Below are positions 56,977 to 58,940 of a DNA stretch of 64,000 nt, in pieces; the first letter of the stretch is position 1, and every line of letters starts with the position of its first letter. The position numbers and the translations under genes were made by a program. The stretch comes from a virus (taxonomy: Duplodnaviria > Heunggongvirae > Uroviricota > Caudoviricetes). The stretch lies in the IMG/VR virus record IMGVR_UViG_3300045988_150638. One strand, 5' to 3'. Under the pieces are notes generated by a model. It was not told the DNA's origin. It saw nothing but the letters and a program-made list of their open reading frames with translations, and ran no database searches.

Positions 56977-57400
56977 CAGATATACTGTTCCAGTGGCAAT
57001 TGAAGAGCCTGGGCAATTTTCTTCAATTGCTCCTGCTCTTCTGCCCCAATGCCATCCTGGTCAGCAATATCAATGCATAGGCACAGAACATCTACCGCAT
57101 CATTAGTTCCAGACACGTCAGCCAGTTCACGTAAAGCCTGGGCATTCGCTCGGCGCGGCGAGGCTTCATATTGAGCGCGAATATTGGCGCTCATCTGGGC
57201 AATTTCACCGGAGAACGGCGCAAAGGCAGGAAGTGCTGCAATGGTTTTTTCCAATACTGCAATTTCTTTCGCATCGCAGGTGCCGTCAGAGTATGCAATG
57301 GAATATGCGCCCAGACAGTCGCTTCCACCGCATCACGGTTTTCCATCTTCTTGACTCCGCCAGCCGCTTTGCGGAATTTCTTTTTGAGAATGCCGAGCAT
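56976..57400 (-). pseudogene. TerB-like (tciA-like) gene with apparent -1 frameshift
   Basis: N-terminal part in the frame starting at ATG 57400; the TerB-like body (IAYSDGTCDAKEIAV...IDIADQDGIGAEEQEQLKKIA) is in another frame with no in-frame ATG; frames meet near 57310-57320. Confidence 0.4.
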
Positions 57401-58131
57401 TTATTAACCTCATTACTGGTTGGGAAATAAGGTTGCGGTGCCGGGTGCCTCCCGGTGTCCTTTAGCTGGTTATCCACCGTGGACGGGGAAATAAGGAGAA
57501 ATAATGGACAGATATAACCATTTCCCCGCGTGCGCTTAGCCGCATTCACCGCAACGGAAAGAGCATTCCTGGTGGACCTGTAGATTGGGATATGAACCCG
57601 TTACAGGAGAATGCTCTTACCTGTTACGTGCTCCGTTTCGTGGAGCTAACGGCGGGTGATCGGGCCGCACCAGACTGGACTTATTTCAGCGTTATGCTCA
57701 TGCCAGAGAATCAAACTGTGATGGTCGGTGCTGAACTCCGACACAGGGTTGTAGCAAGCCACGCAAAGCGCGCACTACTGTAGTTGCGGCACATCAGCCT
57801 GTGCATTCACCACAATGTTGAGAACACTGGTTGTCACGCTGCAACGCAACATTTATTCGTAGATTGGGATATGACCCCGTTACGCCAGTGTTCTCAACGT
57901 TGTAGTGCCGGTTACGGTTCCGGCCAGGCCTCTTCCTCAACGGGGTGTTCTCCATACGGACTACCGTTTATTGGTCGTTCCTGCGGTTTATGTTGTGAAG
58001 CCAGATGCTTATCTTCTGGTTGCTTCAAAGAGCTGCACTTCATCACAACGGTAAGGGTACTTCGTAGGGATTCGAACCCTCTGCCAAGCTCGGCGATCTC
58101 CGACGTCGCAAAATACCCTTACCTGTTGTGC

Positions 58132-58207
58132 TGGTGCCGATTAACGGACTCGAACCGCTGACATCCTGCTTACAAGGCAGGCGCTCTACCAACTGAGCTA
58201 AACCGGC
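58132..58207 (-). tRNA. tRNA-Thr (anticodon UGU)
   Basis: 76 nt cloverleaf with 7-bp acceptor stem, anticodon loop CUUGUAA, T-loop TTCGAGT, 3' CCA. Confidence 0.85.
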
Positions 58208-58209
58208 AT

Positions 58210-58285
58210 TGGCGATGGTGGATGGATTTGAACCATCGACCCGTTGATTAACAGTCAACCGCTCTAACCGCTGAGCTACACCATC
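58210..58285 (-). tRNA. tRNA-Asn (anticodon GUU)
   Basis: 76 nt cloverleaf; anticodon loop CUGUUAA; T-loop TTCAAAT; 3' CCA. Confidence 0.85.
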
Positions 58286-58940
58286 ACTTGCCGGGTACGT
58301 CTCCGGCGAGGGCTTCCACCTCCGTATGCTTTTCGGCGCACCGCGCCCTGGCTGCAATTCGGTAACAGGGGATGCACAACCCTGGCTTCCAGCGTGATTA
58401 GCGCCTTCAGCATGACGGGATATACCCGTAAATTCGTGGAACTGTACCCAAAGTGCTGTTAAGCACCGCTGTTACGCTGAAAAGAAAACGCAACAGGAAA
58501 GGACGCTGACCAACAGATGGCCCCTTCTCGTTCATCTGGTTAATCACACCAGCGCCCTTACCTGTTGTGCCTCCCCGTTCCCTAATACACAGACGGGGAC
58601 ACTCTGCGGTCGATTTTTTTGACGGGGGACGACTCATACCCCGTGGCATCTGGTTTCTTAGGCCGCTACCATCATCAGATCATCGTTTGCATTTACTTTA
58701 ATGGTCAGTTTCTAAACCGCCGCAAAGTCGCTAACCATGACGAAAACCCTGAAAAAAACGCCCACCCGAAGATGGGCAAACTGGAAGCTCGTAACGCACT
58801 TCGGCGTTGCCACTTAGGCGCATGGTCAACCTGGCAACTCGGTGGTTTGTCTGGGAGGACTAGGCCCAGCCATGCTTACCGCCGCGCCTGTCGCGGCTAA
58901 CAGCTAAATCGCTCTATAAATCACGATTCATTGAGGCGAT

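Follow-up and report, generated by a model that had tools for sequence, protein, structure and literature searches.

Two copies of a 25-nt core form the tips of paralogous structured RNA modules in the ban-operon leader of phage P1

Phage P1 is among the classic model phages, and about 10% of the complete E. coli genomes (539 of 5,426 with matches) contain a P1-like phage-plasmid. What, then, are the two nearly identical 25-nt sequences that P1 carries next to its tRNA genes, each of them held in a hairpin? The window, i.e., the whole stretch of 64,000 nucleotides analysed here, is phage P1 at 99.6% identity. From its minus strand the C1-repressed ban operon is transcribed with an untranslated leader of ca. 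1.5 kb; Pban/Op72, the tRNAs and ban all lie on this strand, on which the order is Pban, a dicF-like element, trnA, trnT, element A, element B, element C, an STnc100-like element, tciABC, trnI and ban. Both core repeats and the elements B and C around them are located inside the untranslated leader. The sole previous annotation of this region consists of two doubtful ORFs, upl and plp, in place of which we find conserved RNA structures with covariation support.

The repeated core and the modules that carry it

The core is present exactly twice in the 64-kb window, at 57580-57604 (copy 1) and 57859-57883 (copy 2), as detected with the pattern GTAGATTGGGATATGAMCCCGTTAC (plus-strand coordinates), and the copies are identical at 24 of 25 positions. 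No additional match appeared in the window when 3 mismatches were allowed, the pattern had 0 matches in 100 dinucleotide shuffles with none expected by chance, and a repeat search recovered these two copies as well, 96% identical and spaced by 279 nt. The initial annotation had thus been right about the two copies and about the position of the first, while the second begins at 57859 and not at 57858. On the minus strand, copy 1 reads GUAACGGGUUCAUAUCCCAAUCUAC and forms the tip of element C, and copy 2 reads GUAACGGGGUCAUAUCCCAAUCUAC and supplies hairpin 1 of element B with its tip and internal loop. Copy 2 is enclosed by the inverted repeat I1 (23-nt arms at 57808-57830 and 57885-57907, 91% complementary) and copy 1 by the inverted repeat I3 (arms at 57556-57568 and 57609-57621, 92% complementary), which bears out the hairpins and stems described earlier for each core. 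Both elements fold far better than shuffled sequence: For the element around copy 2 the z-score is -6.26 on the minus strand and -4.21 on the plus strand, and for the element around copy 1 it is -4.87 and -2.58, respectively. The setting in a tRNA cluster holds as well: The genes trnT (tRNA-Thr, 58132-58207) and trnA (tRNA-Asn, 58210-58285) both lie on the minus strand as neighbours of holder hairpins (see below), and an Rfam tRNA scan of the window scored only the three known tRNAs.

Element B (57810-57905, minus strand) forms a three-way junction with a minimum free energy of -46 kcal/mol. Its 21-bp closing stem, CUACAACGUUGAGAACACUGG / CCAGUGUUCUCAACAUUGUGG, comprises 21 pairs with one mismatch and supports hairpin 1 (57858-57884), which contains the core with its invariant part ACGGGNUCAUAUCCCAAUC, and hairpin 2 (57832-57851), which has the tip UUGCAG. 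After the stem follows a conserved 3' tail, GUGAAUGC, at 57803-57810. A hammerhead-like core was considered and found to be absent when the junction sequences were inspected. Element C (57550-57629, minus strand) is a long holder hairpin with hairpin 1 only as its tip (57577-57607), closed by CCUGUA/UACAGG and bearing the 7-nt bulge UCCACCA, and its stem is of the same type as those of element A and of the lambdoid holders. A covariance model, R1, that was built from 18 P1-like B sequences alone scores 128 bits on B (57802-57906) and 40.9 bits on C (57541-57630). The two 25-nt copies are, in short, the tips of two paralogous structured RNA modules. No terminator or U-tract was found after B or C. 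Element B is present in every P1-like leader examined; among P1-like phages, C is absent from P7 and D6, and the C tip is absent from Ro157c2.

B and C are paralogous to two further elements, A and D, with which they have 5' and 3' flank repeats (D1/D2/D5) in common. Element A (58044-58130, minus strand; repeats D1, D2 and D5, inverted repeat I6 and fold) begins 2 nt past the CCA of trnT and has a canonical T-arm-like hairpin, AGGGUUCGAAUCCCU, within its cargo (58066-58080), and the stem of element A bears another short cargo in P7 and Ro157c2. Element D (58489-58569, minus strand; repeats D2 and D5) is a holder hairpin upstream of trnA with the arms CACAACAGGUAAGGGCGCUG... / ...CAGCGUCCUUUCCUGUUGCG. 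As read from the folds, the stems of A, C and D comprise ca. 17 to 20 bp.

Three smaller features surround these modules. Immediately 5' of B lies a small hairpin, GCCGGAACCGUAACCGGC (57907-57924, minus strand), which is matched at 18 of 18 positions in the Yersinia unit, resembles the 3' end of tRNA-Thr and has a diverged copy just before trnA (58290-58307). Its place is taken by an intact tRNA-Thr 3' end in three loci (L009, L014 and L015), and this hairpin is probably a tRNA remnant. Downstream of the junction, a post-B domain (57716-57815, minus strand) starts with UGUGGUGAAUGCACAGGCUGAUGUG and ends with CCAUCACAG; at the 5' end it shares nucleotides with the 3' strand of the B stem base so that an alternative pairing, UGUGGUG/CAUCACA, can be read from the sequence. 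In lambdoid phages this domain is likewise found after holders, and in the plasmid of locus L157 it stands in front of tRNA-Ser. Finally, an STnc100/PasD-like sRNA-type module (57432-57553, minus strand) is located between C, on its 5' side, and tciA (ATG at 57400), on its 3' side, and directly adjoins both. This module is a partial match to RF02076 (57434-57553; 34.8 bits, E = 5e-5, model positions 31-147 of 206) that stays below the gathering score of 47, and its conserved ends are visible in an alignment (A1). Neither B nor C matches RF02076.

Conservation of the structure and its coding strand

The model built on P1-like B sequences also finds the E-type elements of Yersinia prophages at full length, with 42-51 bits, and independent folds of B and of a Yersinia type-E element give the same three-way junction. 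A core of 19-23 nt is invariant between these homologues and B (the inner 23 nt of copy 1, 57581-57603, are identical to the type-E core at 23 of 23 positions), and 18 of the 37 base pairs have changed on both sides and are still paired. Given that MAFFT mis-registers the stems of B and E, we used a model-guided alignment (A7) together with the independent folds. Across 32 distinct B and E sequences, 94.6% of cells are paired compared to 79.2% in shuffles, none of 500 of which reached the observed value, and to 29-51% in slid controls, though this covariation amounts essentially to two clades and hence to few independent events in an alignment fitted to the model. The closing stem of hairpin 1 differs in each class and is always paired, reading CGUA/UACG in B, CCUGUA/UACAGG in C, UGAAUA/UAUUCA in E and CGUG/CACG in the variant L194. 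Compensatory changes and a stability above that of shuffles, as generally expected of conserved structured RNAs, are thus both seen in this two-clade, model-fitted comparison. Selection on RNA structure, which had been proposed from the two P1 copies and their differing but complementary closing pairs, is therefore supported, well beyond what these two copies could show by themselves, by a Yersinia class that keeps the core and the architecture with nearly all stems replaced by compensatory pairs.

The initial annotation had read the plus strand of these elements, whereas three lines of evidence argue for the minus strand as the functional one, i.e., the direction of Pban and the tRNAs, an asymmetry between G.U and A.C oppositions and the co-orientation with Q genes, terminators and tRNAs elsewhere. 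Pairing reaches 94.6% when read on the sense strand and 84.8% on the antisense strand, with 137 G.U cells spread over 14 pair columns versus 24 A.C cells spread over 7 on the sense strand, and where only one side of a pair has changed within B or within E, the outcome is mostly G.U. In most P1-like genomes, stem pair 8/91 of B shows the opposite, with C.A when read as the sense strand and G.U when read as the antisense strand.

Database searches returned no known family. Rfam, whose use had been proposed as a check on the two hairpins, has no family for B, C, the Yersinia units or the HK629 holder among its 4,227 models at either gathering or E-value thresholds; the best match overlapping the elements, mir-142, is spurious (27.6 bits, with the gathering score at 57). 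When the Yersinia unit was compared with phage genomes by BLAST, only PY54-type Yersinia phages matched, and the sequence is not annotated in them. A scan of representative genomes with ACGGGNTCATATCCCAAT gave 30 matches, about the chance expectation, of which only those in Yersinia alsatica and in one P1-like Escherichia contig are real, and none of the remaining matches lies inside a tRNA gene.

A family of holder hairpins across phage leaders and tRNA arrays

B and C fall into a larger and so far unannotated group of holder hairpins, a family that is shared with lambdoid and Yersinia prophages. These ca. 20-bp hairpins have a common stem base, CRCAAC.../...GUUGYG, and the 3' tail GUGAAUGC, and their tips are highly variable, with 59 distinct cargos among 94 holders. 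They are positioned either right after tRNA genes or in the leaders of lambdoid late operons. In the former case, holders begin 1-3 nt after the tRNA CCA, as seen for element A and trnT, for the P7/D6 holder and tRNA-Ser, and for B and tRNA-Thr in three loci (L009, L014 and L156). In the latter case, HK629 and other lambdoid phages carry the same holder and tail between Q/HNH genes and holin. The cargo often resembles tRNA, as with the anticodon arm in B and C that is similar to that of initiator tRNA (see below), and sense-oriented T-arm-like hairpins occur in 6 of the 59 cargos, all of these lambdoid, compared to an expectation of 0.02. Matches were found in 629 plasmids of PLSDB and in the 539 E. 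coli genomes noted above, and nearly all of these records, as far as listed, have no annotated feature beneath the match; the HK629-type holder is present in 340 of 5,426 E. coli chromosomes. The holders represent an unannotated RNA family across P1-like, lambdoid and Yersinia prophages that has no entry in Rfam.

A proposed role in transcript processing and alternative explanations

The function that we consider most likely, inferred from structure and position, is that of punctuation for the processing or stability of a tRNA-sRNA-mRNA transcript, and we hold it tentatively, at somewhat less than even confidence, that B and C are paralogous leader modules of the holder family acting in cis in this way. 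The ca. 20-bp stems would serve as RNase III-type substrates or as barriers to exonucleases on the polycistronic transcript, and the conserved single-stranded tail past each stem would be a plausible site of endonuclease entry that creates the 5' end of the next RNA unit. Their geometry agrees with RNase III-type cleavage in that the stems, which are mostly double-stranded over some two helical turns, all lie in the ban leader, a spacer that is transcribed. RNase III processing hairpins are well known from polycistronic phage transcripts, i.e., R1-R5 of the T7 early region, the N-leader and sib of lambda, and dicF of the Qin prophage. Like these, the P1 elements are irregular stems of ca. 20 bp between functional units of a long early transcript, and the P1 leader likewise has a dicF-like module. 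Unlike them, the P1 elements have sequence-conserved tips and a three-way junction, their stem bases and 3' tail are common to many phages, and their processing is a prediction. If it is correct, the tRNAs, sRNA-like modules and the tciABC-ban mRNA would all be excised from a single C1-controlled transcript. Among the three roles that the initial annotation had suggested, processing sites and tRNA-derived RNAs would be the best readings. We note that a plain processing hairpin leaves the invariance of the tip unexplained, i.e., that of 19-23 nt between Escherichia and Yersinia phages with stems free to change.

This invariant tip resembles part of a tRNA. The core, ACGGG-UUCAUAU-CCCAA, matches the anticodon arm of E. 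coli tRNAfMet, UCGGG-CUCAUAA-CCCGA, at 13 of 17 positions including the three loop-adjacent G-C pairs, U33, CAU and A37 (the reference was confirmed as a 100%-identical tRNA-Met gene with a median of 4 copies per genome). The three G-C pairs, the 7-nt loop, U33, CAU and A37 of an anticodon arm are hence all there, as a resemblance of sequence only. Hairpin 1 could accordingly be imagined as a mimic or decoy of the initiator-tRNA anticodon stem-loop that is presented on a stable scaffold, possibly as a small stable RNA, and acts in trans on a tRNA-targeting toxin or defence nuclease (VapC-type), MetRS or the 30S P site with IF3; we consider this unlikely. The GGG/CCC pairs and CAUA are indeed constant across the B, C, E and L194 classes, which differ in all of their closing stems and at positions 32, 33 and 38 of the loop, the elements are always found in phage tRNA clusters, and the T-arm-like cargos of other holders would fit a theme of displayed tRNA parts. 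On the other hand, hairpin 1 has an asymmetric internal loop (AC / AAUC) where a real anticodon stem has its upper two pairs, L194 has a C at position 33, the resemblance was noticed post hoc and spans only 17 nt, and B, C and E are not recognised as tRNA-like by the Rfam tRNA model (up to E = 10) or, when run at a useful stringency, by ARAGORN. In relaxed and mitochondrial modes, ARAGORN reported CAU as an anticodon in the P1 leader and the E unit only amid many spurious calls. Reading the core as a T-arm was rejected in favour of the better-fitting anticodon arm, given that loop position 58 is U and not A and that the stem has only 3 bp.

The P1 elements are comparable to tRNA and YrlA mimics in their location within a tRNA array, in the GGG/CCC pairs and UCAUA loop that hairpin 1 has in common with tRNAfMet and in the T-arm-like hairpins of element A and 6 of 59 lambdoid cargos. 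They differ from tRNAs by having neither D arm nor CCA and a stem of ca. 20 bp instead of 7, and the sole match of the Rfam YrlA model in the window is the real tRNA pair. Non-tRNA substrates of RNase P and small stable RNAs from the tRNA regions of phages include the C4 antisense precursor of P1/P7, the phi80-induced M3 RNA and the stable RNAs C and D encoded in the tRNA cluster of phage T4. P1 itself thus encodes in C4 a tRNA-associated or tRNA-like folded RNA with its 5' and 3' ends paired in a long stem. The elements described here are similar to these RNAs in being phage-encoded, tRNA-associated or tRNA-like and paired at their ends in a long stem, but they have no 3' CCA past the B stem and no match to the Rfam C4 model. 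In its broadest form, which we regard as very doubtful, the holder would be a widespread display scaffold for phage RNA, with a conserved ca. 20-bp stem in early (P1) or late (lambdoid) leaders, interchangeable tips that mimic tRNA parts and, in P1 and Yersinia, an initiator-tRNA anticodon-arm decoy for a host factor or defence nuclease. Any activity of the tRNA-arm-like tips in trans would make them phage RNA mimics of a new kind.

It is rather improbable that the hairpin-1 loop, a YUNR-type UUCA U-turn, and the adjoining CCCAAUCUA are a conserved base-pairing seed that forms kissing interactions with a target RNA in trans or in cis, similar to the C4 antisense RNA of P1 and the prophage Pas/STnc100 sRNAs from similar leaders. 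Single-stranded nucleotides are invariant while stems vary, a YUNR-like motif can be read in the loop, and the STnc100/PasD-like module follows directly downstream. Leaders of prophage late operons are known as sRNA islands, and PasA is excised from a longer transcript (10.64898/2026.05.13.724894; PMC8550237). STnc100, PasD and PasA-C occupy the same niche in leaders near Q, holin and TerB (RF02076; Zhu, Shabalina & Storz 2026; Pearl Mizrahi et al. 2021), and the STnc100-like module abuts C; B and C differ from these sRNAs in matching neither RF02076 nor ending in a terminator or U-tract. Furthermore, the 64-kb window holds no complement to the core of at least 10 nt elsewhere, only 9-mers at chance level, and no joint target of loops 1 and 2, which co-occur solely on the antisense strand of B itself.

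Similarly improbable is an explanation at the level of DNA, with the inverted repeats as terminal repeats of a miniature mobile element (as the initial annotation had considered) or as linkers for the shuffling of cassettes and with hairpins that have no function as RNA. It would account for the same ca. 20-bp inverted repeats around at least 59 different cargos in unrelated phages, for cassettes between the holders that differ among P1, P7/D6, Ro157c2, SJ46 and the L157 plasmid, for deletions precisely between repeated cores and between paralogous stems, for an element (L022) that scores on both strands, and for the known variability of the tciABC region among P1-like plasmids (PMC9603915). 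As DNA repeats, however, the arms are inexact, with G.U pairing on one strand only (see the cell counts above), and their sequences diverge with compensation, unlike conserved protein-binding sites. Those copies whose flanks were read sit in phage leaders and tRNA arrays, nearly all of them co-oriented with tRNAs, Q genes and terminators (L022 being the exception); the asymmetric 3' tail GUGAAUGC is conserved outside the repeat; and no transposase gene was noticed in the flanks examined. A mobile element is thus disfavoured by the G.U-paired arms, the co-orientation with transcription and the tail. Enterobacterial palindromic repeats or MITEs such as ERIC/IRU and the YPAL-type elements of Yersinia are likewise imperfect palindromes of ca. 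100 nt in transcribed intergenic regions of Escherichia and Yersinia that fold as RNA hairpins, but the P1-type elements differ in their restriction to phage leaders and tRNA arrays, their single orientation and their hypervariable cargo. We know of no sequence similarity between them and the ERIC consensus.

That the elements are functionless debris of decayed tRNA genes and flanks, kept by linkage and recent common descent, appears very unlikely. Decay is visible to varying degrees across this tRNA array, with a tRNA-Ser-like gene in P7 and D6 at the place of unrecognisable sequence in P1, a small hairpin that resembles the tRNA-Thr 3' end and T-arm fragments among the cargo, and C is absent or truncated in some relatives. 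The region is also non-essential in the laboratory, where CRISPRi knock-down across plp, upl, trnT and tciABC caused no plaque defect (PMC10695390); apart from this non-essentiality, that study and a P1vir transcriptome preprint are silent on the RNAs discussed here. Against mere decay stand a 23-nt core that is identical between E. coli P1-like phages and Yersinia amid stems turned over with 18 compensated pairs, the pairing kept at 94.6%, and the presence of B in every P1-like leader examined.

A protein-coding repeat, with both core copies encoding VDWDM(N/T)PL in frame in the annotated plus-strand ORFs upl (57592-57783, ATG inside the core; intact in 62 loci) and plp (57784-58161, antisense to trnT and element A), is hardly credible and was rejected on Pfam matches (none at gathering score: no match for Plp and only CdiA_helical for Upl at 13.5 bits against a cut-off of 27), on ORF conservation (plp is full-length without internal stop in only 25 of 101 matching loci, upl/plp are broken or replaced in P7/D6, Ro157c2, L009 and L014, the one Yersinia locus checked, L030, has no plus-strand ORF of at least 70 aa across the core, and B and E do not have the same reading frames on the sense strand), on annotation (mostly no gene there among the PLSDB and RefSeq/PGAP records listed) and on a promoter scan that found no sigma-70-like promoter.

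Whatever their role as RNA, the two cores are repeated in direct orientation, so that homologous recombination between them deletes the 279-bp cassette that they enclose. SJ46-type hybrids lack exactly the interval between the core copies, and the position at which the copies differ is G in three of these loci and T in one, indicating different crossover points. Repeated cores and stems would thus lead to recurrent deletions and cassette swaps in this known variable region of P1-like plasmids.

Two copies of a repeat in the ban operon leader

Between 57300 and 58700, the window matches phage P1 (NC_005856) in reverse orientation at 99.6% identity, and this stretch represents the leader of the ban operon. 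In the P1 annotation, the minus strand runs from Pban/Op72 (a C1-controlled promoter and operator) over a dicF-like region, trnA (Asn) and trnT (Thr) into ca. 730 nt without a sense-strand gene, followed by tciA-tciB-tciC, trnI, ban and dbn. The whole region has been found dispensable for laboratory plaque formation by CRISPRi (PMC10695390). The 25-nt core occurs exactly twice in the window, at 57580-57604 (copy 1) and 57859-57883 (copy 2), 279 nt apart and with 24 of 25 nucleotides identical, while none of 100 shuffles contained a match even with three mismatches permitted. As proposed in the initial annotation, the repeat is thus a real feature, and each copy indeed sits in its own hairpin (inverted repeats I1 and I3) with a stability far above that of shuffled sequence. 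The minus-strand folds (z = -6.26 for the copy-2 and -4.87 for the copy-1 hairpin) are better defined than those of the plus strand (z = -4.21 and -2.58).

Copy 2 is held by element B (57810-57905, minus strand), a three-way junction with a closing stem of 21 bp (CUACAACGUUGAGAACACUGG / CCAGUGUUCUCAACAUUGUGG), a hairpin 1 of the layout CGUA-AC-GGG-[GUCAUAU]-CCC-AAUC-UACG, a hairpin 2 with the tip UUGCAG, and the tail GUGAAUGC directly after the stem. Element C (57550-57629, minus strand) consists of a long stem topped only by hairpin 1, which contains copy 1 and is closed by CCUGUA/UACAGG. Elements A (58044-58130, minus strand, beginning 2 nt past the trnT CCA) and D (58489-58569, minus strand) are long hairpins with a common 5' stem base CACAACAGGUAAG..., a 3' strand ending in ...CCGUUGYG and a similar tail (repeat families D1, D2 and D5); the tip of element A includes a canonical T-arm-like hairpin, AGGGUUCGAAUCCCU. 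Because stem base and tail are shared among elements A to D, we view the two core copies as the tips, or cargos, of two paralogous "holder" hairpins from a set of four on a single transcript. A small hairpin immediately 5' of element B (GCCGGAACCGUAACCGGC; 57907-57924, minus strand) resembles the 3' end of tRNA-Thr and is related to another one immediately 5' of trnA (GCCGGAGACGUACCCGGC; 58290-58307, minus strand), and similar hairpins ending in GGCAC precede holders in lambdoid contigs.

The dicF-like region (58742-58843) ends in a strong intrinsic terminator (58759-58778, minus strand; UGCCCAUCUUCGGGUGGGCG then U7) inside the ban leader and upstream of the tRNAs, so either ban-operon transcription has to read through it, or the dicF-like RNA is made separately as a short product. 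Directly upstream of the TerB-family gene tciA lies an STnc100/PasD-like sRNA module (57432-57553, minus strand) that matches Rfam RF02076 partially (34.8 bits vs a gathering score of 47, E = 5e-5). Its closing stem UGCGGUG...CACCGCA and both ends are kept in P1, P7, D6, Ro157c2 and SJ46, and the interior differs. In a 2026 preprint (10.64898/2026.05.13.724894), STnc100/PasD and PasA/C are associated with prophage leaders close to Q, holin and TerB genes.

Conserved, covarying RNA structures on the sense strand

A third class of elements, type E, shares the central 23 nt of the core with copy 1 at full identity within stems that are wholly different from those of B and C (ACAUUCGCCUGAGCAUCAC - UGAAUA[core]UAUUCA - hairpin 2 CAUUG[UUGCAG]CAAUG - GGUGCUCAGCCGAAUGU). 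The hosts of type E are probably Yersinia, given that no named match other than Y. alsatica and phage PY54 was obtained. These elements are always in sense orientation, located after a tRNA or in the interval that separates the Q antiterminator or tR' from the lysis genes, and fold independently into a three-way junction like element B. Covariance model R1, built from 18 P1-like B sequences only (alignment A4), recovers full-length E elements with scores of 42-51 bits and element C with 40.9 bits. Across 32 distinct B and E sequences, standard pairs fill 94.6% of the pair cells vs 79.2% in shuffles (0 of 500 reaching the observed value) and 29-51% in slid controls. Both sides have changed in 18 of the 37 pairs, in a comparison that is essentially two-clade (B vs E) with few independent events and an alignment fitted to the model. 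The selection on RNA structure suggested by the initial annotation therefore has solid comparative support. No Rfam family covers these elements. In a fourth variant (L194), which sits within a lambdoid-type holder, the closing stem is CGUG/CACG and the loop reads CCCAUAA.

The hairpins had originally been read on the plus strand, though transcription context and pairing identify the functional RNA as the ban-sense, minus-strand transcript; the helices are palindromic and thus identical either way. Pban, the tRNAs and ban are all on the minus strand, and at the Yersinia loci whose flanks were read, Q, terminators and tRNA ends point in the same direction as the elements. On the antisense strand, standard pairing drops to 84.8%, and 137 G.U cells in 14 pair columns stand against 24 A.C cells in 7 columns. 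One-sided changes within B and within E are mostly to G.U. An exception to the strand evidence is one stem position of P1-type B, which shows C.A when read in sense.

Yersinia prophages and PY54-type phages carry a structured unit of ca. 250 nt that is highly conserved and lies between Q/tR' and the lysis genes (L031:8939-9197, plus strand, and at least about 20 other loci). Its parts are the three-way junction of type E, a domain of the form GGGGAUACAAG...CCCC and the hairpin GCCGGAACCGUAACCGGC; the P1 leader has this small hairpin and the start of the domain following element B in common with it. The unit is sometimes tandem or trailed by a truncated second copy (L022, L032, L056), and no Rfam match to it was found.

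A wider holder family and its possible roles

Model R1 also matches long hairpins with the same base and tail and other tips, and the 3' strand and tail of element B match lambdoid phages including HK629, mEp460, 1720a-02, an Edwardsiella phage and Klebsiella phages. The HK629 holder (L158:836-918; GCACAACAGGUAAGAGCAUUG ... CAGUGCUCUUAUCGUUGUG, then GUGAAUGCACAGGCUGAUGUG) lies between an HNH gene and the holin, just after a terminator; its type was found in 340 of 5,426 E. coli genomes, with a nearly always chromosomal location and without annotation among the matches listed. Scanning viral contigs with the stem sequence returned at least 120 loci, 117 of which were read (L159 upward). The ca. 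20-bp stem is nearly constant in lambdoid-type contigs (GCACAACAGGUAAGAGCAUUG / CAGUGCUCUUAYCGUUGUG), and the 94 complete holders among the matches listed carry at least 59 distinct cargos, which measure 33-119 nt. A canonical T-arm-like hairpin, always in sense orientation, is present in six of these 59 (0.02 expected from shuffles). Holders often begin 1-3 nt past a tRNA CCA, and tRNA-like 5' sequence directly follows in two of the 94. The repeat elements are thus unannotated members of a larger holder family that also appears to be undescribed in the literature and databases searched, and they are a variant of the structured RNAs of phage tRNA clusters or leaders.

The elements are embedded in a polycistronic transcript that has to yield tRNAs, dicF-like and STnc100-like sRNA modules, and mRNA. 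Their ca. 20-bp stems and conserved single-stranded tails may serve as processing or stability punctuation, with stems as RNase III-type targets or exonuclease blocks and tails as endonuclease entry points that would make the 5' end of the next unit. P1's C4 RNA, a product of RNase P, is a precedent. Judging from sequence, the holder 3' strand (GUUGYG-GUG) could alternatively pair with the downstream CAC-CRCAAC that closes the next domain, which would be consistent with punctuation. In P1, the holder 3' strand UGUGG overlaps the 5' strand of the next domain's closing helix UGUGGUG/CAUCACA (57803-57815 with 57716-57724), and GUUGCG overlaps that of UGCGGUG/CACCGCA (57540-57553 with 57432-57442), so neighboring structures should be mutually exclusive at these junctions. 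The Yersinia partner is CACCACA or CAUCAUA, and pairing is possible for both. A further precedent is PasA, which comes from a comparable prophage leader and matures through cleavage (10.64898/2026.05.13.724894).

Punctuation leaves the invariance of the tip unaccounted for, and two other readings were therefore kept. The invariant part of the core, ACGGG-NUCAUAU-CCCAAUC, forms a 3-bp GGG/CCC stem with a 7-nt loop, bordered by the asymmetric internal loop AC / AAUC; GGG/CCC and CAUA are constant across classes except for one G.U in L058, and variation affects positions 32, 33 and 38 as well as every closing stem. Of 17 positions, 13 agree with the initiator-tRNA anticodon arm of E. coli (UCGGG-CUCAUAA-CCCGA; confirmed by a 100%-identical tRNA-Met gene with a median copy number of four per genome), among them the three G-C pairs, U33, CAU and A37, a resemblance that is short and was spotted post hoc. 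That hairpin 1 imitates this arm seems unlikely, and neither a tRNA covariance model nor ARAGORN recognized the elements as tRNA. The same conservation could mark the tip as a base-pairing seed, which we find even more doubtful.

A coding explanation was rejected. The repeat falls within two predicted plus-strand ORFs of the P1 annotation, upl (57592-57783) and plp ("putative lipoprotein", 57784-58161). Neither product reaches the Pfam gathering score (Upl has one sub-threshold match). In P7/D6, Ro157c2 and further relatives, the ORFs are either disrupted or replaced, and most RefSeq/PGAP and PLSDB rows among the matches listed have no gene annotated at their place. The plp ORF is probably not a gene: its antisense course covers elements B and A and the 3' end region of trnT, and it is full-length without internal stop in only 25 of 101 matching loci. 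At the one Yersinia locus checked (L030), no antisense ORF of at least 70 aa crosses the core, and sense-strand reading frames differ between B and E.

Deletions and cassette exchange between repeats

In the DNA itself, repetition of the core and paralogy of the stems drive deletions and the exchange of cassettes, in line with the variability already known for the tciABC region (PMC9603915). Aligning P1, P7, D6, Ro157c2 and SJ46 showed element B in all five genomes, with SJ46 retaining only its 5' part in a B/C hybrid whose deletion spans exactly copy 2 to copy 1 and leaves a single hybrid core. P7 and D6 have a different cassette instead of element C (a tRNA-Ser(UGA)-like gene, then another holder hairpin), and 13 nt are missing from the element C tip of Ro157c2. 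A pattern scan of IMG/VR found at least 120 loci, with all counts being lower bounds: at least 61 with B plus C (59 with 279-nt and two with 680-nt spacing), at least about 30 with B only, at least about 20 of type E, at least four with C only and at least four B/C hybrids. Four hybrids have two different crossover points, indicating independent deletions. In PLSDB, 629 plasmids match the B-to-C interval, 405 of them over at least 80% of it. Element C with the STnc100-like segment is found in 539 of 5,426 complete E. coli genomes, at 556 places of which 547 are on plasmids, and nearly all records among the matches listed lack an annotated feature there.

The tRNA-Ser(UGA)-like gene of P7/D6 (L004/L003:1638-1724) measures 87 nt and lies between element B and the tciA leader. 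An unrecognizable sequence in P1 (57630-57715, minus strand) shows patchy similarity to it and is possibly a decayed copy. On the plasmid at locus L157, the post-B domain runs directly into tRNA-Ser. The tRNA content of the leader is variable in L002 (Ro157c2YLVW) and L156/L157 (rep_cluster_488 plasmids), with a tRNA-Tyr inserted between the Asn and Thr tRNAs in such variants. Ro157c2 also carries an insert with a small ORF just 5' of element B and a putative serine protease gene in place of tciABC.
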